From a virus: 52,407 nucleotides of DNA. Made by a program: the position numbers and the translations under genes. The DNA is taken from the UHGV virus genome UHGV-0113213. One strand, 5' to 3'. Of the stretch, positions 722 to 46,104 are shown piece by piece (position 1 is the first letter of the stretch; each line of letters opens with the position of its first letter). A model generated the notes under the pieces. It did no database searches. It had not been told where the DNA came from and worked only from the letters and a program-made list of their open reading frames with translations.

Positions 722-970
722 ATGAAAAACATGCTCAAAGTGGTATTATTCGCTGCGGCTGTTGCTCTTACTGGTTGTGCTGTTGACAAAGATGCTGCAT
801 TGCACAACCTGCCAAATAGCGGAGTAATTCCTCAAGAAATTGTCTATGATGCTAATGGTCATCTTGTCTATGACACTGAAAAACTTCCATATACTGGTCA
901 ATGGTGTCATGAACTAGATCACAATATGCGCCGCATCGGTAGCCCGTCGAATTGTGTAGCTAACTACTAA
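722..970 (+). CDS. small lipoprotein (moron) between J and the tail fibre
   Basis: 82 aa. Signal peptide plus lipobox: MKNMLKVVLFAAAVALTG|C. Opposite strand to the tail genes, with its own terminator. Confidence 0.8.
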   Translation: MKNMLKVVLFAAAVALTGCAVDKDAALHNLPNSGVIPQEIVYDANGHLVYDTEKLPYTGQWCHELDHNMRRIGSPSNCVANY

Positions 971-7522: not shown

Positions 7523-7587
7523 TGTGATCTGCGTCACGCTAAATCATACCAAAATGGATTGATCGCGGTTTTTACAATATGTATATT
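7523..7587 (+). promoter_or_regulatory. sigma70-type promoter for the plus-strand cassette, with an upstream CRP-like palindrome
   Basis: TGTGATCTGCGTCACG (7523-7538); TACCAAAATGG motif variant (7547-7557); -35 TTGATC (7559-7564), 17-nt spacer, -10 TATATT (7582-7587). On the minus strand the same region reads TGGTATGAT (extended -10) facing L. Confidence 0.6.
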
Positions 7588-7633
7588 TTACTCAAACGGA
7601 AGCATAGTTAACAAAATGGCGCGGAGGTGCGTT

Positions 7634-9115: not shown

Positions 9116-9147
9116 AAAACCCCCACAAGTTACATTTTGTATATATC

Positions 9148-9199: not shown

Positions 9200-9242
9200 G
9201 TTTACAAAATGGCTTCACATAGCACGCAACAAGATGTATATA
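9200..9242 (+). promoter_or_regulatory. sigma70-type promoter of the 9283-9710 cassette
   Basis: GTTTACAAAATGG motif (9200-9212) abuts -35 TTCACA (9214-9219); 17-nt spacer; -10 TATATA (9237-9242). Confidence 0.6.
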
Positions 9243-9455: not shown

Positions 9456-9710
9456 ATGAAACTGGTAGCGATTGACAGAAATCTGAAAGCACAGAAAAAC
9501 GCACAGGACCGGATCATCAAGAAAGGTAAGGAATTACTTAAAGCCTTTCTGAGAAAAGAAGTTTACCCCAAAAAGTTACGCGACGGTTACGGATACAAAA
9601 TGGATATCAATCTTGATTGGAGGCTGTTTAGCGAAGATTTGAAGGTTTGGTTAATTGTTGAGCACCGTGCCTATAACAAGTTATGTGGCGTGAAAGGCAC
9701 TCATAAGTGA
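9456..9710 (+). CDS. hypothetical basic protein
   Basis: 84 aa, Lys-rich. GGGGTGAG SD. Second gene of the cassette inserted between H and M. Confidence 0.6.
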   Translation: MKLVAIDRNLKAQKNAQDRIIKKGKELLKAFLRKEVYPKKLRDGYGYKMDINLDWRLFSEDLKVWLIVEHRAYNKLCGVKGTHK

Positions 9711-9765: not shown

Positions 9766-9800
9766 AAATAACCCCGGCATTGCACCGGGGTTTAGTTTAT
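9766..9800. terminator. bidirectional rho-independent terminator
   Basis: CCCCGG(9772-9777)...CCGGGG(9785-9790), flanked by AAAAATAA on the left and TTTAGTTTATTT on the right. Lies between the cassette end and the tape measure stop. Confidence 0.7.
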
Positions 9801-12139
9801 TTGCGGCGAGGTTGCAACATTCCGCCTGGTCTTTGAGATTCCCTTGTTATCATTTTCATGGCTACACGTTCCATTGTTAATTCAAGTCTGCGGCTGTCTT
9901 CGTCGCTGAATCCGTTCGTGGTCTGAATGCTGATACTGACAGGCATACTAATACCGCCACCGCCGCCAATATCACGGCCCGGAATAACTCTGCCGTTCTC
10001 GCCAGGGATCATATATTGATTGCCGTTAGATGTCTGGAATAGCTCCGGCCTGTTGTGTTCCCCTACGCGGTACATATTACCACCAATGACGCTACCACCA
10101 TTAAAGCGACCGCCGCCGAAAATTGACGTAGCCAGCGACATGATCGCAGTGAGCGCCGCCGAACCAGCCGCCGCCCAGCTACCGCCAGTTGACGCCGCAG
10201 TTGCCGCCGCTGCTGGGGCCGCCGCCGCAGCAATGCTTCCCTGAGCTGCTACCGCGCTTGCTGTTGTACTTGTTTGCGTGGCCTTGCTTTGTGTCTCCAT
10301 CATGATCTGATCTGCTATCCAGTTTGCAGCTATGTCTGAGAGTCTGTTACCGATATTGCCGAGTATATTGCTTCCTAAGTTAGCAAAAACATCACTCAAT
10401 GATTGAGTGCCGTTTAACAGGCCAACAAGCGCATTACTCATTCCGCCTTTAAGGCCATTAACACAATCACCGATAAGGCCGTTTGTGTCGCTTTGCGCCT
10501 GCCATTGTTCCCATTTCAGATCGCGGATCTGTTGCTCATAGGCTAACAATTCCTGTTTCTGTTGCGCTTCAGTAGCGCCCAGGTCTATAAGCATTTGCTT
10601 ACGGATGGCCCATTCATTTTGCGCCTGCTGGATGGGGTCAACTTCGCCTTTTAGCTGATCCATCGGGCTTACTATTTGTGACCATTTATCACGCAATTCA
10701 TCTACCGGAATTTGTGCTAATTCTTCTTTCAGTTCCTTGCCGATCCCTTTTTGCGCGGCGCGGTACTCAAGGAGCGTGATTTTACCCTGGGCAAATGCAG
10801 CATCAATGGCCTTGCCGTTCTCCAACGCTTTGCGCATGGCGGCGGCGTCTTTGTTGTACTGATCAGAAACGCTTATACCTTTGTCACCAAGCCGATCAGC
10901 TTCCGATTTCTTCTCTTTTTTCTGTTTTTTCGGCTTGTCTACTGGCTTGTCGAATCCGGTAATCGCTCCGTCATTGGCAGCATTCTGTTCATTTTTCCTT
11001 GCTTCTTCTGTAGCCTGGATTGCTGCGGTCAGATCATCCTGTAGTTGCATGACCTTGCCAACGGTCTTCCCGTATTTCTTCTCGTAGTTGCTGTTATATT
11101 CGTCGGTTTGCTCTCCTACTACCTCCTTCATCCATTTATAGCCATCCATTAGCGCCTTGATTGGCGTCACCATTGCGATGATCTTCTCTGCCACCTCTCC
11201 AGCCTTAACAGCCACATCATCAAACATGTCGATAAATTCGCTACCAGCCGTTTTGAGTGTGTCGAAGCAGGTTTTAGCGAATTTAGCGCCATCGCCAAGC
11301 CCTTTAACGCCTTTCGTGATCAAGTCGATAGCTGAAACAACGCCATCTGACACGCCAAAAAGATCATCCAACTGCTCAACAAGGCCCATAATTTCTACTT
11401 TAAGCTCATTGATAGCCATGCCGGATGTGCGCGGCAACTGAGCAAACTTATCGTTTGTTTCCTGCGTAGCCGCCTGTATTGCGTTAACCATCCTTTCAGC
11501 CGTGATCTTGCCGTCCAGCATTTCGGCGCGGAACTGGCCCATTGATAATCCCATATGGCGGGCCATTGTTTGTACGATGGTCGGCGTATTTTCAAGCAGG
11601 CTGTTAAATTCTTCGGCACGAAGAACACCGCCGTCGATAGACTGACGGAATTGACGCATTGAGTTAGACATCTGTTCCGCTGACGCGCCGCCTAATGCAC
11701 CCATTTTCTGAATAGTGCCAACCAGGTTAAGCAATTGCCCTTCCGTAGCGGAGGTGTTTTTTAGTGAGATAGCCAGGCCTTGCCATAATTCGCCAGTATC
11801 TTTCAGGCTCTGCCCCGTCTCCCTGGATATTGCTTTCAGGCCGTCGAAAACCCGTCCGGCGGACTCCGCATCGCCCGTAAGCATTTTGATTTTTACGCGA
11901 AGCATTTTTGCTTGCTCCGCCATATCCATAAATTGGCGCACAGCCTCCGCAGCAATTAGCAGATGGATAACCCTGGTCAGTGCCTTGATGGATGTTTTCA
12001 GGGTGTTTACCTGGCGGTCAGCCTGTTTTGCGCCGCGCTCTATACGATCAAAGGCCTGGTCTGCCTGTCGTTGTGCAACGAGAAGTTGACCAGTTTTCGC
12101 ATCAACTTCGTAATAAATTGTACCTACACTGGTAGCCAT
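9797..12139 (-). CDS. H: tail tape measure protein
   Basis: 780 aa. Long alpha-helical, Ala/Gln/Gly-rich, with a Gly/Ala-rich hydrophobic segment near the C-terminus. Position between the chaperone and M. Confidence 0.9.
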   Translation of the reverse strand: MATSVGTIYYEVDAKTGQLLVAQRQADQAFDRIERGAKQADRQVNTLKTSIKALTRVIHLLIAAEAVRQFMDMAEQAKMLRVKIKMLTGDAESAGRVFDGLKAISRETGQSLKDTGELWQGLAISLKNTSATEGQLLNLVGTIQKMGALGGASAEQMSNSMRQFRQSIDGGVLRAEEFNSLLENTPTIVQTMARHMGLSMGQFRAEMLDGKITAERMVNAIQAATQETNDKFAQLPRTSGMAINELKVEIMGLVEQLDDLFGVSDGVVSAIDLITKGVKGLGDGAKFAKTCFDTLKTAGSEFIDMFDDVAVKAGEVAEKIIAMVTPIKALMDGYKWMKEVVGEQTDEYNSNYEKKYGKTVGKVMQLQDDLTAAIQATEEARKNEQNAANDGAITGFDKPVDKPKKQKKEKKSEADRLGDKGISVSDQYNKDAAAMRKALENGKAIDAAFAQGKITLLEYRAAQKGIGKELKEELAQIPVDELRDKWSQIVSPMDQLKGEVDPIQQAQNEWAIRKQMLIDLGATEAQQKQELLAYEQQIRDLKWEQWQAQSDTNGLIGDCVNGLKGGMSNALVGLLNGTQSLSDVFANLGSNILGNIGNRLSDIAANWIADQIMMETQSKATQTSTTASAVAAQGSIAAAAAPAAAATAASTGGSWAAAGSAALTAIMSLATSIFGGGRFNGGSVIGGNMYRVGEHNRPELFQTSNGNQYMIPGENGRVIPGRDIGGGGGISMPVSISIQTTNGFSDEDSRRLELTMERVAMKMITRESQRPGGMLQPRRK

Positions 12140-12159
12140 GATTTAACCTCATGCAAAAA

Positions 12160-12221
12160 TGTGATCTGTGTATCTATTTTATACAAAATGGCTTTACTTC
12201 AACGACTCCATTTTGTATAAG
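12160..12221. promoter_or_regulatory. back-to-back divergent promoters built on a perfect 13-bp inverted repeat
   Basis: TGTGATCTGTGT (12160-12171). TTATACAAAATGG (12179-12191), 16-nt spacer, CCATTTTGTATAA (12208-12220). Plus strand: -35 TTTACT (12193-12198), 17 nt, -10 TATAAG (12216-12221). Minus strand: -10 TATAAA (12178-12183) facing H. Confidence 0.6.
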
Positions 12222-12266
12222 GAAGCTAAAGGGAATGGTCAGTAAATCAAGTTAGCGTGGTGGGTT

Positions 12267-12926
12267 ATGAAACGGTTAGCAAAAGTGGCAATGATTGCGG
12301 CGGTATTGGGTCTGGTTGGTTGCAATGAGGATAATGAAAAAGCGCCTATAGTGACCAATCAAGAGCAACAAGCATTAGTAGAGAAAAATGCTAAATGGCT
12401 TGCAGAACAACAAGCAAAACAAGCCGCATACGATGCACAGTTAGAAAAAGAAAATGCTGGTAAACAGTGGCTTGTAGTTGAAAGAAAAGATGATATGCAG
12501 GACGCAAAAAACGTATTCCTTTTTGTGAAAGCAGAACAATTCAGCGGAAGTCTTGATGCTTTCCCGACACTGAAGGCACAGGATAAGAATAAACCGGTAT
12601 TAACAATCGCTTGCCAGGGTAATAAAACAAAAATGTTCGTAGCATGGTCACACCATGTAACTGACGCCGGGGACACTACTTATATTAACTACCGGATCGG
12701 CGTTCACAAAGCTGTAGCTACTGAGTGGTGGCGGTCAACTAATTATAAAGCTCTTGGATTATGGGACGGCAAAAAAGCCATCCCAATGATTAAAAAACTG
12801 GTTAACGAAAAACAATTCATCATTGAAGTAGTGCCGGAAGCTGGCGACATTGAGAAAGCAGTGTTTAACATTGATGGTCTTTATAACCACATCGACAAAG
12901 TGAAAAACGCTTGCAACTGGAATTAA
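12267..12926 (+). CDS. lipoprotein (moron)
   Basis: 219 aa. MKRLAKVAMIAAVLGLVG|C lipobox. Gln/Ala/Lys-rich linker followed by a globular domain. Confidence 0.8.
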   Translation: MKRLAKVAMIAAVLGLVGCNEDNEKAPIVTNQEQQALVEKNAKWLAEQQAKQAAYDAQLEKENAGKQWLVVERKDDMQDAKNVFLFVKAEQFSGSLDAFPTLKAQDKNKPVLTIACQGNKTKMFVAWSHHVTDAGDTTYINYRIGVHKAVATEWWRSTNYKALGLWDGKKAIPMIKKLVNEKQFIIEVVPEAGDIEKAVFNIDGLYNHIDKVKNACNWN

Positions 12927-12936
12927 GGGGTAAATC

Positions 12937-13311
12937 ATGAAAAAAATAATCAAAGCGGTTCTCATTGGTGTTATGGCTTTAGCTCTTACAGGGTGCGCAA
13001 GATCAACTGATTTCGTTAAGTTAGCTGATAAAAATTTGCAAGTTGGAATGACTTGTGAGCAAGTGAATAAAATAATGGGGGAACCACAAAGAATCGAGCA
13101 TGACGGTAATTATAGTTATCACGTATGGTATTCAGTAACCAGCACGATAGGATTTACTTACATGGATGTTGAAGAATTATCCCCTTCAAGGGTTATCGCA
13201 AAGTTTGATAACTGCATCCTAAAAGAATGGAAAGATCGCAGTAAGGCAAAGTCTGTATACAATACAATCACACACAGTTCACCAGGTACAGCAATTAAAG
13301 ATTTCAATTAG
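12937..13311 (+). CDS. lipoprotein with a BamE/SmpA-OmlA-like fold signature
   Basis: 124 aa. MKKIIKAVLIGVMALALTG|C lipobox. LQVGMTCEQVNKIMGEPQ resembles the BamE-type motif (recalled). Confidence 0.7.
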   Translation: MKKIIKAVLIGVMALALTGCARSTDFVKLADKNLQVGMTCEQVNKIMGEPQRIEHDGNYSYHVWYSVTSTIGFTYMDVEELSPSRVIAKFDNCILKEWKDRSKAKSVYNTITHSSPGTAIKDFN

Positions 13312-14011
13312 CAAAACGCCCGGATCTACCGGGCTTTTCTTGCTCACGATTTTTCATTCTTTCTAGTGCCTTTTTAGCGGCCTCCATTTGCTCGTCATAA
13401 GCACGTTTATTTATGTGAATGTTTGGCTTGCTTTTCTCGTTTCTTTCGTCTGGCGGCGTTTTAGCGCGTACAGCGGCCCTATATCCGGTCATTGTCATAT
13501 TCCATGCTTCCGATTCTGACAAGCCCAGGTGAGCAACGGCAGAATAGACGAATTCAAGGACGTTAAAAGTCGGCTTATATTCCCCTTCCGGGATTTCCCC
13601 GGACTCTTCTTCCGGGCCATCACCAATAAGACCGTGGTACATGCAGTGCTGCGCAAGCGTGATGATATCCTCGATCGGCATTAATCCGGGCTTTAACTTT
13701 AACTTACCCGAAGGAGTAAACCAGCATTCGCCCAATAACGGGCCTATTTCGTCGTCTGAGCAACATTTCAGGATGTGCATTGATGTCTGAACTATTTCAC
13801 CATAACACCGCGCCAGAATGCGATTGCGTAGGTCTGGATCTGCTGGCAATCGTGATGGATATTTGCCGCCGTGGATAAGTGCGAAATATTCGACAAGCTC
13901 ACTATCGTTGCCGATTTTAGCCATCGCAGCAAAGCAAGGATTAAACTCATAGCGCTTACCGTTCACCACGGCAGCAAATTGTCCTGTACGAACATGGATC
14001 ATAGTATTCAC
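13304..14011 (-). CDS. tail assembly chaperone (G/GT-equivalent position)
   Basis: 235 aa, located between the tail tube and tape measure genes. Acidic middle, basic C-terminus. A single continuous ORF; I could not find a convincing slippery site. Confidence 0.5.
   Translation of the reverse strand: MNTMIHVRTGQFAAVVNGKRYEFNPCFAAMAKIGNDSELVEYFALIHGGKYPSRLPADPDLRNRILARCYGEIVQTSMHILKCCSDDEIGPLLGECWFTPSGKLKLKPGLMPIEDIITLAQHCMYHGLIGDGPEEESGEIPEGEYKPTFNVLEFVYSAVAHLGLSESEAWNMTMTGYRAAVRAKTPPDERNEKSKPNIHINKRAYDEQMEAAKKALERMKNREQEKPGRSGRFAN
13315..13342 (+). terminator. rho-independent terminator of the lipoprotein cassette
   Basis: GCCCGG(13318-13323) ATCTA CCGGGC(13329-13334) followed by TTTTCTTG. 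Embedded in the 3' end of the convergent minus-strand ORF. Confidence 0.7.
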
Positions 14012-26694: not shown

Positions 26695-26722
26695 AAGCAA
26701 AAACCCGGCTCGTGGCCGGGTA
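26695..26722 (-). terminator. rho-independent terminator immediately upstream of the lysis cassette (tR'-like)
   Basis: CCCGGCC ACGA GCCGGG on the minus strand, followed by TTTTTGCTTTGTT, then GGAGG and the holin ATG. Confidence 0.65.
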
Positions 26723-26783
26723 ATTACAATTTCGCATTGTTAGGAAATATTTTAATCTATTTGTTTTTTATGCGCGATTATGG

Positions 26784-26966
26784 CTACAAATCACTAACTT
26801 TCACCAAATCGCCATTATCAAGCCAGATTTTAATTGTTTCTCGCGTCGTCTTGATGATTGGCGCTACCCACTCACCATCGCTAACGCAAACGCGAATATC
26901 ACCACCCTCTATGCGATAAAACATCTTGTCGATTAGTGTTACGGCGTATATACCATCTTCAATCAT
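26784..26966 (-). CDS. hypothetical small protein
   Basis: 60 aa, last ORF of the accessory block. Start overlaps the upstream stop (ATGA). Confidence 0.5.
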   Translation of the reverse strand: MIEDGIYAVTLIDKMFYRIEGGDIRVCVSDGEWVAPIIKTTRETIKIWLDNGDLVKVSDL

Positions 26967-28298: not shown

Positions 28299-28577
28299 TT
28301 ATGCCATGCGTGCAAATTCAAGTGATTTGCATTCGTAGTCTTCCTCTGCCTGTTCGATGACTGCCATCATCATTTCGTTTGCGTTGTTGAATGCGTTGCT
28401 TTGTGCGAACTTGTCGGCTCCACCTTCTTCTTCGAACTCCGCGTTGTTTGCTGCAATGTAGTGATATTCGATGTTGTTCAGGTAAGGGCTTGCAGCGTGT
28501 GCTGGGTCTTCTTTCTCCACCATCTCCCAAAATGCGTTTAAGCGAGATTCGACTTCTTTGTTAATCCAGCGTTTCAT
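28299..28577 (-). CDS. hypothetical acidic protein
   Basis: 92 aa. GGAGGG SD. First gene downstream of the 28613-28674 promoter module. Confidence 0.6.
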   Translation of the reverse strand: MKRWINKEVESRLNAFWEMVEKEDPAHAASPYLNNIEYHYIAANNAEFEEEGGADKFAQSNAFNNANEMMMAVIEQAEEDYECKSLEFARMA

Positions 28578-28612: not shown

Positions 28613-28674
28613 TTTATAACAAAATGGCACTGCCGAAACAATGCCATTTCGTAAACCTTGTGATACAGATCACA
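28613..28674 (-). promoter_or_regulatory. internal promoter module with a near-consensus CRP site
   Basis: Minus strand: AAATGTGATCTGTATCACA (core 28659-28674, 14/16 to TGTGATCTAGATCACA), then 25 nt from the centre to -35 TTGTTT (28636-28641), a 17-nt spacer containing CCATTTTG, and -10 TATAAA (28613-28618). Confidence 0.6.
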
Positions 28675-34801: not shown

Positions 34802-34877
34802 AATGCTCTCTCCTTTTCAGGTGATTTCTACGCATTTCAGCGCTGCCGGATTTTTAAAGAGCATTTTGTTTGCTTGA

Positions 34878-34959
34878 AGTATACAAAATGGATACCCCCA
34901 AACAAGGCAAAAAGCGCCATTATGTGATCCGCATCACGCAATGATGCCATTTTGTAAAC
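34878..34959 (-). promoter_or_regulatory. internal promoter module with a CRP-like site
   Basis: Minus strand: GTTTACAAAATGG (34947-34959), CGTGATGCGGATCACA (34923-34938), 25 nt from the centre to -35 TTGTTT (34900-34905), a 16-nt spacer ending CCATTTTG, and -10 TATACT (34878-34883). Confidence 0.6.
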
Positions 34960-34960
34960 T

Positions 34961-38280: not shown

Positions 38281-38341
38281 AGTTTACAAAACGGATATGC
38301 GATCGCAATACAAAATGTATATTTATGTGATCGCAATCACG
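38281..38341 (-). promoter_or_regulatory. internal promoter module with a CRP-like site
   Basis: Minus strand: CGTGATTGCGATCACA (38326-38341), 25 nt from the centre to -35 TTGCGA (38303-38308), a 16-nt spacer ending CCGTTTTG, and -10 TAAACT (38281-38286). Confidence 0.55.
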
Positions 38342-39875: not shown

Positions 39876-39995
39876 TCACCCCAACAATGCAACAATTAAT
39901 TCAGCAATAAAAACGGCGACATAAAAAGAAGCTGTGATATAAATCACCCCAATAACGAAGGCGGCGGCTAATGCCGCAATTTTTACCATGCTCAT
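39876..39995 (-). CDS. hydrophobic micropeptide (39 aa)
   Basis: MSMVKIAALAAAFVIGVIYITASFYVAVFIAELIVALLG. ATGA overlap with the upstream gene. Confidence 0.5.
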   Translation of the reverse strand: MSMVKIAALAAAFVIGVIYITASFYVAVFIAELIVALLG

Positions 39996-41689: not shown

Positions 41690-41719
41690 AATGTCATCTC
41701 CGGATGTTTACATTTTGTA

Positions 41720-42010
41720 TTAATGGTAGCGGACTTTATCCAGGGGTTTTTCCCCTAAATGGCGTGGTTGCGTTGCGTGGTAGTAGCTGCCGCTTTCATT
41801 TTCCGTATACCATTTTACTGATCCTTTGCGACGTTCTTTAATGCTATTTGGTTTGCATCTTTCCTCGTTTGCAAATCGAATAGCTTTATCCACATTGTCT
41901 GTTTTATTGATTGCAGGTGATGATTTTCTTTCGTTTTCTCTTTTTATCCTTCTGCGTTCCCTGGCATTCATTTTGCTATCACATTTACCATATATAATTG
42001 TAACGCTCAT
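41720..42010 (-). CDS. N: N-like transcription antiterminator (arginine-rich motif)
   Basis: 96 aa, first gene after PL. Residues 14-29, MNARERRRIKRENERK, resemble the ARMs of lambda N (MDAQTRRRERRAEKQ) and P22 N. boxA/boxB-like elements are present (see 43322-43354). Confidence 0.6.
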   Translation of the reverse strand: MSVTIIYGKCDSKMNARERRRIKRENERKSSPAINKTDNVDKAIRFANEERCKPNSIKERRKGSVKWYTENESGSYYHATQPRHLGEKPLDKVRYH

Positions 42011-42358
42011 AATCTGATCTCCGTATATCCTTGATGATACTTAATAAAAAATCATCTTCGTTAATTGCCGCACTTCCAGCGGCTGACCAGATTGTTAATG
42101 AGCGGCTTAACATCTTTCAACTAATCCCGCAATCATCGCCGTTCCCGGCGTGACCTTGCTCACTCCAAGCAAGCTGACTCGTCGCCTTGCGTGCGGTTTC
42201 GTGGGGGATGTAACGCTTTAAACACCCCATGCGCCTTGTTATCAGTGCCGCTTTCGGTCCCCCATCGGGGAGTTACTCCACGGTTGACAAGGTGTTAAGC
42301 CTGATTTTTAAAGTGCCAGGAAGTTGCTTTTGTTACCTGCGCCCTTCCTTTGACTCGC

Positions 42359-42401
42359 AATATACGCCCCGTAAAACATCGAGTCAATCCATTTTGTATA
42401 C
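42359..42401 (-). promoter_or_regulatory. PL-like early leftward promoter with an abutting phage motif
   Basis: Minus strand: GTATACAAAATGG (42389-42401), then -35 TTGACT (42382-42387), a 17-nt spacer and -10 TATATT (42359-42364). Confidence 0.65.
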
Positions 42402-42510: not shown

Positions 42511-43158
42511 TTATGGCAGGTTTACGATCTTCGCATCAACCACCACGCCTATAATTTTTGATTCTGGATTCATAGGGATTGGCGGATACAGCGGATTGAG
42601 CGAACGTAAAAGCCTTTGACCTCCATCAATAATCAACTGTTTAAACGTCGGTATCTGCCCTTCCTCAAGCTGGGCTATAACCAGTTTGCCGTCAATAGCT
42701 GGCGCGTGCGGGTCCACAAGTATCATCGTCCCCGCCGGGATGCTCAACCCCTGCGGCGCGTTCATTGATTCACCTTTGGCAACCAGCCAGTAACTGTCAT
42801 CTGAACAAATAACGCTAGTCGTAACGTGTCGTAATGCTGAACGCCTTGCGTCATCCATATTGTTTACTGTGTCCTTCCAGTCAATAACCGGGTAACTACC
42901 TAAATCACGCGGCGGCACGGCCTGAAGTGTATTAGAAACAGAATCATCAATGACCATGCCATCATGTGTAACAGTAAACTGCCGACGACCAAGCTCGCGC
43001 ATAATCCGCGCAATATCTTCAAGATTTGGCTCTCGGCGACCGTTCAGCCAGTGTGACAGGCCGCCTTTAGTTATCCCCATACGATCCGCGAGTGAATCCT
43101 GGCTCATGCCCTGCGCCCGCATGAGCTGCTTTGCTAAGTCATACCATTTTGTTTTCAT
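42511..43158 (-). CDS. cI: CI-type prophage repressor (HTH + S24 LexA-like peptidase)
   Basis: 215 aa. N-terminal HTH (SQDSLADRMGITKGGLSHWLNGRREP). C-terminal autocleavage domain with GESM (Ser) and a downstream Lys (FKQL). Confidence 0.88.
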   Translation of the reverse strand: MKTKWYDLAKQLMRAQGMSQDSLADRMGITKGGLSHWLNGRREPNLEDIARIMRELGRRQFTVTHDGMVIDDSVSNTLQAVPPRDLGSYPVIDWKDTVNNMDDARRSALRHVTTSVICSDDSYWLVAKGESMNAPQGLSIPAGTMILVDPHAPAIDGKLVIAQLEEGQIPTFKQLIIDGGQRLLRSLNPLYPPIPMNPESKIIGVVVDAKIVNLP

Positions 43159-43217
43159 GTCGCTACCCTATAACCTCAAAAAGTTTGATGCAAGTCACAA
43201 AACGTGTATTTTAAGCC

Positions 43218-43245
43218 TTGATCTTAAAATTCCATTTTGTAAACT
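43218..43245 (+). promoter_or_regulatory. PR-like early rightward promoter overlapped by the phage motif
   Basis: -35 TTGATC (43218-43223), a 16-nt spacer ending CCATTTTG, -10 TAAACT (43240-43245). An alternative is TTGATG (43185)-16-TATTTT (43207). Exact motif CCATTTTGTAAAC at 43232-43244. Confidence 0.5.
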
Positions 43246-43321: not shown

Positions 43322-43354
43322 TGCTCTTTAAAAATCCGGTGTCGCTGCGAAGCG
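43322..43354 (+). promoter_or_regulatory. nutR-like site: boxA plus a boxB hairpin
   Basis: TGCTCTTTAAAAA (43322-43334) against the boxA consensus (C/T)GCTCTTTAACAA. 8 nt later, CGCT-GCGA-AGCG (43343-43354): a 4-bp stem with a GNRA loop. Confidence 0.55.
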
Positions 43355-43463: not shown

Positions 43464-43730
43464 ATGAGTATAAACATGATTAGTAAAGCATGGAACGTAA
43501 AACTTAATAGCCCGATTCAAAAACTTGTCTTAATGGCTCTGGCTGAAAAGGCAGATAACAAAGGACGGGTACATGATGCATCACGCAAAGAAGTAGCCGC
43601 AATGTGTGAACTTCCTGTTCATACGGTACATGATGCCTTCGCCGCGTTAATGGATAAAGGATTTGTTTGTCGTCTTGATGCATTCAGTGATGTCTATGTA
43701 GTGATGTTGCCGGGGGGGGATGATCTATGA
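43464..43730 (+). CDS. winged-helix/HTH protein (HTH_36-like), first gene of the rightward operon
   Basis: 88 aa from the ATG at 43464 (AGGAG SD). AWNVKLNSPIQKLVLMALAEKADNKGRV...S..EVAAMCELPVHTVHDAFAAL..KGFV. Confidence 0.6.
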   Translation: MSINMISKAWNVKLNSPIQKLVLMALAEKADNKGRVHDASRKEVAAMCELPVHTVHDAFAALMDKGFVCRLDAFSDVYVVMLPGGDDL

Positions 43731-45147: not shown

Positions 45148-46071
45148 ATGCGCAAGTTAACACATGATGAACAGGTTGCGGCTATCGCTAAGGTTAATCA
45201 TGATGTCGAAGTGCTTGGGGAAATTGTCAATAACAGGACAAAAGTATCCTGCCGCTGCAAGGTTTGCAGTCACGAATGGTCGGCTAGACCTTACAATCTT
45301 AAAAGCGGTTACGGCTGCCCGAAATGCGCCGGAAAGATGAAATTATCACACGAAGAACAGGTTGCCGCTATCGAGAAGGTTAATTCTGATGTCGAAGTGA
45401 TTGGCGAAATAATAAACGGCGATACAAAAGCATTATGCCGCTGCAAAGTTTGTAATCACGAATGGTCGGCTAAACCTAACAACCTAAAAAACGGGCGCGG
45501 CTGCCCGAAATGTAAAGGTTTAAAAATCGCACAAAGACGAACATTATCACACGAAGAACATTTATCCGCTATCACTAAGGTAAATCATGATATTGAAGTA
45601 TTGGGAGAAATAATAAACGATAGGACAAAAGTATTATGTCGATGCAAGGTTTGTGATCATAAGTGGTCGCCTAGACCTTATGCTATTAAAAGCGGGCAAG
45701 GCTGCCCGAAATGTGCGAAACACGGTTTTTTGTCACACAATTTCGGCAAACTTTACATCATGGTTGATGATCCTGAAGTGCCTACACAAATGAAAATCGG
45801 CGTAAGCGTTAATGAGAACAAGCGAAGAAATCGGGTATTAAAAAGCGCACATAAATCAGGCGTTAGAATCCCTGATTTATGTGTCGTGAAAACGTTAGAA
45901 GGTCCAACCGAAAATATCCATGAATTAGAAAGCACGATGCATAAATATTTCAGCAATTATAAAATTAACTTTCCTGTAAAATTTGATGGCAGTAATGAGT
46001 TTTTCTATTACAGGCCGGAAGTATTCGACATGGTAGAAGAAGCATATAAAGAGATTGTTTGCTGTCAATGA
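45148..46071 (+). CDS. triple zinc-ribbon repeat protein with a C-terminal T5orf172 (GIY-YIG-like) domain
   Basis: 307 aa. Three repeats of about 65 aa (LSHEEQVAAI.KVN.DVEV.GEI.N..TK..CRCKVC.HEWSA.P.NLK.G.GCPKC.G). The C-terminus KLYIMVDDP...KIGVS.N...R...L........P.L.....EGP.ENIHELESTMHKYF...K......GSNEFFY is T5orf172-like (recalled). Confidence 0.6.
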   Translation: MRKLTHDEQVAAIAKVNHDVEVLGEIVNNRTKVSCRCKVCSHEWSARPYNLKSGYGCPKCAGKMKLSHEEQVAAIEKVNSDVEVIGEIINGDTKALCRCKVCNHEWSAKPNNLKNGRGCPKCKGLKIAQRRTLSHEEHLSAITKVNHDIEVLGEIINDRTKVLCRCKVCDHKWSPRPYAIKSGQGCPKCAKHGFLSHNFGKLYIMVDDPEVPTQMKIGVSVNENKRRNRVLKSAHKSGVRIPDLCVVKTLEGPTENIHELESTMHKYFSNYKINFPVKFDGSNEFFYYRPEVFDMVEEAYKEIVCCQ

Positions 46072-46104
46072 ATATACAAAATGTAAACATGAGGAAATAA
46101 CAAC

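Follow-up and report, generated by a model that had tools for sequence, protein, structure and literature searches.

An inverted repeat at the lipoprotein cassette promoter of an mEpimmI prophage is probably a pair of CI operators

A 42-bp element with inverted arms lies between the start of a tape measure gene (12139, minus strand) and a lipoprotein cassette on the opposite strand, which raises the question of whether it belongs to a promoter, folds in a transcript or binds a regulator, and which regulator that might be. The window analysed here, the whole 52,407-nucleotide stretch of virus genome UHGV-0113213, corresponds to a prophage from the mEpimmI group, which comprises temperate phages of E. 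coli and has mEp021 as its archetype. Several E. coli genomes contain prophages with 99.8% identity to it, and its tape measure region shares 81-85% identity with that of mEpimmI phages. The gene layout was derived from the annotation of a near-identical prophage and from Pfam scans. On the minus strand a long transcription unit starts at an early promoter, passes through recombination and nin-type genes and a Q-type antiterminator gene (PF03589), and extends over the lysis, head and tail genes. The replication genes are in a divergent early operon on the plus strand, and four short plus-strand cassettes are embedded among the tail genes. The mEp021 counterpart of CI, the repressor Rep021 (at least 90% identical), confers immunity, and the operators of mEpimmI phages were not defined in that work (PMC11893012). 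The gene at 12267 was considered as the exclusion lipoprotein tested in the same study (PMC11893012) and rejected, the tested protein, mEp021 gp81, having its counterpart in a separate cassette, in an ORF with a signal peptide at 722..970. Upstream of this ORF we observed a perfect FNR consensus box, TTGAT-TTAT-ATCAA (632-645), through which its expression may be responsive to anaerobiosis. The features discussed below are collected in Table 1.

Table 1. Features of the lipoprotein cassette region and of related promoters in the window. Promoter positions are relative to assumed transcription starts.
Feature	Coordinates	Strand	Remarks
Three same-orientation sites (7545, 7570, 7607) around the KilAC antirepressor-like cassette promoter	7545..7623	+	
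ParE-like toxin cassette promoter sites	9200..9241	+	-41 (9200-9216), -16 (9225-9241)
Tape measure gene	9797..12139	-	Opposite strand to cassette; adjoins 42-bp element
CRP-consensus-like half palindrome TGTGATCTGTGTATCT	12160..12175	+	Centred at -60.5 of cassette promoter
Upstream operator-like site, left arm + 4 nt, TTATACA-AAA-TGGCTTT	12179..12195	+	Centre 12187 = -41
-35-like hexamer TTTACT, between both sites	12193..12198	+	Read from sequence
Downstream operator-like site, right arm + 4 nt, GACTCCA-TTT-TGTATAA	12204..12220	+	Centre 12212 = -16
-10-like hexamer TATAAG, inside right half-site	12216..12221	+	TATAAA in most relatives
Cassette gene 1, lipoprotein, lipobox LVGC, VasI/TagO-like	12267..12926	+	Pfam PF11319, E = 1e-15; PGAP name in near-identical prophages
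Cassette gene 2, no function assigned	12937..13311	+	
Terminator-like hairpin, bidirectional, closing the lipoprotein cassette	13318..13334		
Paralogous operator pair, leftward promoter for 28299..28577	28615..28656	-	GTTTACG-AAA-TGGCATT at -42; CCATTTTGT over spacer and -10
Perfect CRP-consensus core TGTGATCTGTATCACA	28659..28674		Centred at -60.5 of 28.6-kb promoter
Main early promoter (N-like gene side), TTGACT-17-TATATT	42360..42401	-	Sites at -41 (42385-42401) and -16 (42360-42376)
CI repressor gene, HTH_3 + S24 peptidase	42511..43158	-	Proposed binder
Site AATTCCA-TTT-TGTAAAC, -16 of rightward early promoter TTGATC-16-TAAACT	43228..43244	+	Between the CI gene and the divergent early operon

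The repeat was found to be as the preliminary description of the sequence had claimed, with perfect 13-bp arms, TTATACAAAATGG (12179-12191) and CCATTTTGTATAA (12208-12220), on either side of a 16-nt spacer (12192-12207). Scanning of the 52 kb revealed just two perfect inverted repeats with arms of at least 13 bp and a spacer of at most 40 nt, and one or more comparable repeats arose in 3 of 200 composition-preserving block shuffles. Homology searches with the flanking DNA or the N-terminus of the tape measure protein, and not with the repeat itself, yielded 58 related loci. The repeat is kept in all 58, and 21 different versions of the 42-mer occur among them. Within each arm the inner 11 bp (12180-12190 and 12209-12219) do not vary in these loci save for one A-to-G position, and in the 21 distinct 42-mers 5 of the 26 arm positions vary as against 11 of the 16 spacer positions (Fisher p = 0.0027). 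The flank and core of the left-arm site, TCTATTTTATACAAAATG, are invariant or nearly so in relatives. The block is retained beside a tape measure protein only ~32% identical (L139-141), and also where the downstream cargo differs among relatives. The inverted repeat is genuine and conserved. No tape measure homologues were found in species-representative genomes, and the distant homologues from viral contigs lack an intergenic region at the corresponding position.

Several further observations were made on these alignments. Comparison of 12140-12238 with L139-L141 and L001-L013 showed that the stretch bounded by the ribosome-binding site of the tape measure gene and the -10 hexamer forms a mosaic joint, kept next to at least three different downstream cargos. 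In most relatives (L001-L003, L005-L012) a very small conserved ORF with a strong ribosome-binding site, MKNVNYRPNEHERYADFIEEMLKALKK, follows closely 3' of the cassette promoter, ahead of the cargo gene; this ORF is absent from the window, L004 and L013. The second perfect 13-bp inverted repeat of the window, CACATAAATCAGG-N10-CCTGATTTATGTG at 45848-45883, lies within a zinc-ribbon gene (45148..46071) of the replication operon and may be an origin or a regulatory site.

The arms of the 42-bp repeat are copies of TACAAAATG, which is over-represented in the phage more than any other word and has 16 exact copies as against roughly 0.5 expected. The same word ranks first in mEp021, and the commonest 10-mer of the window is ATACAAAATG, with 12 copies. 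A weight matrix built on 19 copies revealed an invariant, asymmetric core, ACAAAATG, and two sub-types, GT(T/A)TACAAAATGG and (A/T)ATACAAAATGTA. Twenty sites score at least 15 bits, and at least 11 of them are located in the ~8.6% of the window left as non-coding by a generous ORF tiling (p = 1.6e-7). Relative to local transcription the copies point either way, without orientation bias, and several, located within operons (at 41709, 46072 and 47212) or within genes (at 9591 and 20200), have no nearby promoter. Footprinting of the other copies across ~44 genomes showed that their flanks are ~90% identical too. As the relatives have diverged by only ~10-15%, conservation at most sites besides the 42-bp element is weak evidence.

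The motif fits a partly dyad-symmetric template of 17 bp, GTWTACA-NNN-TGTAWAC, which is enriched in the window: 6 sites have at most 2 mismatches, compared with 0.63 in shuffles, and 29 have at most 3, compared with 7.8. A pattern with a free centre, TATAC-N5-GTATA, was not enriched (31 sites for 29 expected), so that the 7+3+7 template was adopted. Its best copies are near-palindromic (ATATACA-AAA-TGTAAAC, GTATACA-AAA-TGGATAC). On this template the T-type copies form near-perfect palindromes, and the G-type copies join a consensus half-site to a weak half-site. The central AAA/TTT is nearly invariant in the copies of the window, unlike in distant lineages. The two arms of the 42-bp repeat deviate from the template by 1+4 and 1+3 mismatches, and the right-arm site by 1+1 in most relatives. 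In the latter, position 12208 is A instead of C. This change disrupts pair 13 of the long repeat, yet with it the -16 site reads GAATACA-TTT-TGTATAA and is a near-perfect dyad over 17 bp, which favours each arm as a whole operator. Three dyad-symmetric T-type copies (ATACAAAATGTAAAC; 41709-41725, 46072-46088 and 9128-9144) lie inside operons, 15-25 nt before start codons; they have no recognisable promoter and contain an ATG-TAA mini-ORF, and might be roadblock-type sites or auxiliary looping sites.

At five promoters of the window, namely the main early promoter and those of the lipoprotein cassette, its paralogue at 28.6 kb, the KilAC cassette at 7.5 kb and the ParE cassette at 9.2 kb, sites centred at -41 and -16 flank the -35 hexamer at a distance of 25 bp from each other, the transcription start being assumed 7 nt after each -10 hexamer at all promoters. 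The main early promoter shows no variation in the -41 site, the -35 or the -10 over 34 distinct sequences, in contrast to its variable spacer. The -16 sites of the main early and 9.2-kb promoters are weak, with 4-5 mismatches (2+2 at the main early promoter), and follow partly from the -10 hexamer itself. The KilAC cassette promoter has sites at -16, at +22 and, weakly, at -41, while those of the 28.6-kb promoter are centred at -42 and about -17. This -17 site, with 7 mismatches to the template, and the -41 site at 7.5 kb were placed by eye, beyond the scan threshold of 6 mismatches. A similar arrangement to that of the 42-bp element had been pointed out at 28619-28652. It reads ACAAAATGG-N16-CCATTTCGT, with the same 16-nt spacing, and is indeed its counterpart in a paralogous promoter module of ~85 bp: the 12.2-kb and 28.6-kb modules share AAATGTGATCTGT, TAC(A/G)AAATGGC and CCATTTTG(T)TATAA(A/G)GAAGCT, and their spacers are unrelated. 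Two earlier readings of the motif, one placing it at -46 to -38 in the direction of transcription and the other over the spacer and -10 in the opposite direction, each fitted some copies and not others; they are the two members of one pair flanking the -35.

A boxA-like element, GCTCTTTAA, was also observed downstream of three motif-bearing promoters (43323-43331 on the plus strand, 42303-42313 and ~34850 on the minus strand). These elements match the nut sites described for mEp021 (nutL, nutR1 and nutR2). Four motif copies and a CRP-like palindrome are also found in the region of nutR2 (34860-34960) and suggest a repressor-controlled internal promoter at this place.

Two interleaved promoters had been read inside the 42-bp element, and only one of them has both hexamers. 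The plus-strand cassette promoter, TTTACT-17-TATAAG, has its hexamers and its 17-nt spacer, but a strict sigma-70 scan did not call it, TATAAG being without T at -7. Its -35-like hexamer appears in relatives as TTTACT, TTCACT, TTCATT, TTTATT or TTTGCT. As had been described, the arms bracket this -35, their sites being centred at -41 and -16, and the downstream site overlaps the spacer and the -10. The minus-strand promoter found no support: it consists of a -10-like hexamer alone, with no acceptable -35 at 16-18 nt, and was not called by the strict scan. The sequences present on that strand are TATAAA/TAAAAT and, at a 15-nt spacing, a poorly conserved TTGAAG. The 42-bp element does not fit a back-to-back divergent pair of sigma-70 promoters, with -35 and -10 hexamers 16-18 nt apart on each strand.

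A clue to the binding protein came from repressors of other phages. CI homologues with several recognition-helix types were collected by protein search and their genomic contexts compared. Distant homologues at 37-55% identity, whose recognition helix is identical to that of CI or resembles it, adjoin arrays of the same site type and spacing. On three viral contigs (L189-191) the CI homologue is 37-38% identical, agrees with CI in its first ten residues and resembles it in the recognition helix; three GTATACA-NNN-xGTxxxx sites occupy the repressor-cro gap and a pair 23 bp apart is found at another promoter. It is on the basis of these arrays, too, that the motif of the window was read on the 7+3+7 template. 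Two Logan contigs of about 47-53 kb (L192/L193) represent a sister family to mEpimmI with the same gene order, a CI of 55% identity whose recognition helix is unchanged, and an unrelated HTH_3 protein as Cro in place of the winged-helix protein; their top 9-mer is again ACAAAATGG. In an Enterobacter prophage remnant (L194; CI 51% identical) the gene has sites on either side; those downstream, with spacings of 34 and 25 bp, are at -75, -41 and -16 of TTGCGC-17-TATATT, followed by a boxA. Apart from the repressor gene almost no phage is left in this remnant, yet the arrays flank the gene. Two triple arrays, spaced 33/26 and 34/25 bp, accompany a CI that is 44% identical (L197), and a Citrobacter homologue with a variant helix (L195; 50% identical) has AATACA-N3-TGTATT arrays on both sides of its gene. 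ATACA-N3-TGTAT arrays thus surround the repressor gene in four lineages with related N-domains. As a negative control, a repressor with the same C-terminal domain and a P22-C2-type N-domain (L196) has P22-type operators, and none of the window's type near its gene. Across the lineages compared, the site type follows the DNA-binding domain of the repressor. A PDB search with the repressor N-domain returned no close relative with a known operator. GATAC-N5-GTATC operator arrays were seen in two unrelated low-GC phage contigs (L036, L083) and rejected as part of the same system, their centre being variable and their repressors not close relatives.

In the window itself, the gap between CI and the divergent early operon contains one strong and one weak copy of the motif rather than a classic set of three. 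One position of the strong copy differs among relatives, and other blocks in this gap, ACTTGCAGACAAGG and TTGCAA..GCAAG, are at least as conserved; these could be the true repressor sites.

We consider it likely, with a probability of about two in three, that the 42-bp repeat consists of two adjacent CI operators at the promoter of the accessory lipoprotein cassette. The preliminary description had suggested an operator rather than a plain promoter element, and this is what the arrays beside distant CI genes, the negative control and the uniform -41/-16 geometry argue for; the same arrays and control make CI the best candidate binder. Each arm, extended by 4 nt inward, would form a whole 17-bp operator with its consensus half-site outside and its weak half inside. 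Two CI dimers would then sit side by side, 25 bp apart, probably in a cooperative manner as at lambda OR1-OR2, and would cover the upstream edge of the -35 region as well as the spacer and the -10, so that the cassette promoter would be shut while the repressor is present. The earlier idea of a dimeric or looping regulator held by both arms would thus retain its occlusion of the cassette promoter, with two neighbouring dimers in place of a single one over 42 bp. CI as the binder, cooperativity and net repression are what the sequence evidence suggests, repression being the preferred direction because the -16 site overlaps the -10. Repression by CI would be unexpected if the cassettes were lysogenic-conversion genes.

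A wider reading is conceivable. Beyond action at two promoters only, CI may run a genome-wide regulon and directly control the four reverse-oriented cassettes of the tail operon (two lipoprotein, one KilAC antirepressor-like and one ParE-like toxin), activating from -41 in lysogens and capping or shutting expression from -16. The pair would then act like lambda OR2/OR3 at PRM, and the cassettes would be tuned by the repressor level, possibly together with CRP at -60.5. The positions of OR2 and OR3 relative to PRM resemble the -41/-16 geometry, and at PRM this geometry gives activation from the upstream site. We put this reading forward only tentatively and think it on balance unlikely.

The proteins that could occupy the sites in place of CI include the early winged-helix protein at the Cro position (43473-43730), a small phage protein or a host factor. 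The asymmetry of the motif core and the single strong copy in the CI-adjacent gap would be consistent with this, and since Cro-type proteins normally share operators with the repressor, a second binder is likely anyway. However, L192 keeps the motif despite its unrelated HTH_3-type Cro, the arrays of L194 flank the repressor gene though little else of the phage remains, and the site type changes with the repressor N-domain. As to host factors, a literature search gave no matching site, the motif strings retrieving only unrelated primer sequences, and to our knowledge none of the DnaA box, IHF, Fis, OmpR, marbox, TyrR and LexA sites fits the invariant ACAAAATG core. Ownership of the sites by a protein other than CI therefore seems doubtful. 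A promoter-strength element for the host RNA polymerase is improbable as well. In such an element the left arm would be UP-like (-46 to -38), the right arm would supply the spacer and -10, and the symmetry would arise from back-to-back divergent promoters of shared design, one for the cassette (plus) and one for the tape measure gene (minus). At five promoters the motif does end 1-2 nt before a -35-like hexamer with its A-tract at about -43 to -40, which is the position of the proximal UP subsite; on the other strand, CCATTTTG abuts a -10-like TATAAG, TAAACT or TATACT, and the motif is found at promoters expected to be active at different times. UP elements, which bind the alpha C-terminal domain, are A/T-rich tracts at about -60 to -38 that make few demands on sequence, and the left arm fits by its position, but G/C positions are invariant in it: C, TG and G are fixed across the copies, and an A/T-tract alpha site would not need them. 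Moreover, the same word occurs at -16 and at promoterless places, the late promoter candidate is without the motif and the minus-strand partner is without a -35 at 16-18 nt. Polymerase contacts would also leave unexplained both the association with a repressor domain across unrelated prophages and the negative control.

Neither the fold of the repeat in RNA nor its place at a recombination joint accounts well for it. A hairpin in the minus-strand late transcript, where this crosses the cassette towards the tape measure gene, acting in processing, stability or attenuation, would draw on a 13-bp stem that folds on both strands at -13.5 to -14.6 kcal/mol (z = -3.1). But the stem has no U-tract and matches no Rfam family, the 21 distinct 42-mers contain no compensatory change and break the innermost pair in 15 cases, and the arms repeat a motif most of whose copies stand alone, all of which makes such a role very unlikely. 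That the repeat is functionless, either as a conserved recombination joint for accessory cassettes or as a chance symmetry, appears scarcely credible: homology among relatives breaks just 3' of the element, where the cargo differs, and the block is kept even beside the tape measure protein that is only 32% identical, but the constraint within this block is much stronger on the arms than on the spacer, and the architecture recurs at other promoters and at a paralogue whose spacer has fully diverged.

With CI as the probable binder, the sites can be compared with known systems. Like lambda CI, the repressor combines an HTH with an S24 self-cleaving domain. Like lambda operators, the sites are partly symmetric over 17 bp, with one consensus and one weaker half-site, and they overlap the -10 and flank the -35; neighbouring sites are, as in lambda, 23-25 bp apart centre to centre, with 25 bp at the 42-bp element and 25-27 bp in the arrays beside distant homologues. 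The partial dyad of ~17 bp, the spacing of 2.2-2.4 helical turns and the overlap with early promoter cores are those of lambda-type CI operators. In contrast to lambda, the half-site is GTWTACA and not TATCACC, ~20 strong copies are spread over roughly ten regulatory regions, including the four reverse-oriented tail-operon cassettes, whereas lambda sites are confined to two immunity-region promoters, and the repressor-adjacent gap has fewer strong sites than lambda OR. Phage P1 offers a parallel for the dispersal, with many C1 operators of one consensus in separate operons, some as inverted pairs. P1 C1 binds asymmetric 17-bp sites as a monomer; it is unrelated in sequence, and the best sites of the window are dyad-symmetric, with a repressor of the lambda CI/LexA type. 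The stoperators of mycobacteriophage L5 gp71 are likewise tens of scattered repressor sites, of 13 bp, several in short intra-operon gaps. They are, however, asymmetric and oriented with transcription; the motif copies of the window do not have this combination, showing no orientation bias, and most of them stand at fixed promoter positions. P22 immI, where Mnt and Arc control ant, resembles the window in having an antirepressor-type cassette in late/tail genes with operators over its promoter, but P22 uses dedicated ribbon-helix-helix repressors, while in the window the main immunity repressor appears to act directly.

The kind of element proposed here is already known. What would be new is its occurrence in a phage group without previously defined operators, and what seems unusual is the wide scatter of the sites. 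The analysis proposes an operator consensus, GTWTACA-NNN-TGTAWAC, and a map of about twenty candidate sites for phages that are common in human gut E. coli. If the CI reading is true, tail-embedded accessory cassettes, including the counterpart of the tested superinfection-exclusion lipoprotein, would answer directly to the immunity repressor. Their expression would then fall in the early period following infection or induction, or depend on the repressor level, instead of being constitutive as for lysogenic-conversion genes, and a lambda-type repressor could control many promoters scattered over a genome.

A second regulatory input is suggested by CRP-like elements. The half palindrome upstream of the 42-bp element matches the left half only of the CRP consensus TGTGA-N6-TCACA, and relatives show no variation in its TGTGAT. 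A CRP-like site with 1 mismatch (43183-43198) accompanies the rightward early promoter and is also centred at -60.5. In class I activation CRP binds at about -61.5. The window contains 34 CRP-type palindromes with at most 2 mismatches for 11.7 expected; on the assumed starts, three are centred at -60.5 and one at -63.5 of predicted promoters. These positions suggest a class I CRP input to the early and cassette promoters. Further CRP-type palindromes were noted at 7523-7538, 590-605, 34923-34938, 38326-38341 and 39933-39947.

The motif was also considered as a loading site for the Q antiterminator and rejected, the likely late promoter (26804 to 26777) having no motif copy. This promoter, GTGAAA-16-CATAAT in the 26703-26804 region of the minus strand, is probably Q-dependent. 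About 60 nt downstream of it, just before the holin gene, lies a strong terminator (26721 to 26703), an arrangement comparable to lambda PR'/tR', and the position of this terminator matches that of terminator t5 demonstrated in mEp021.
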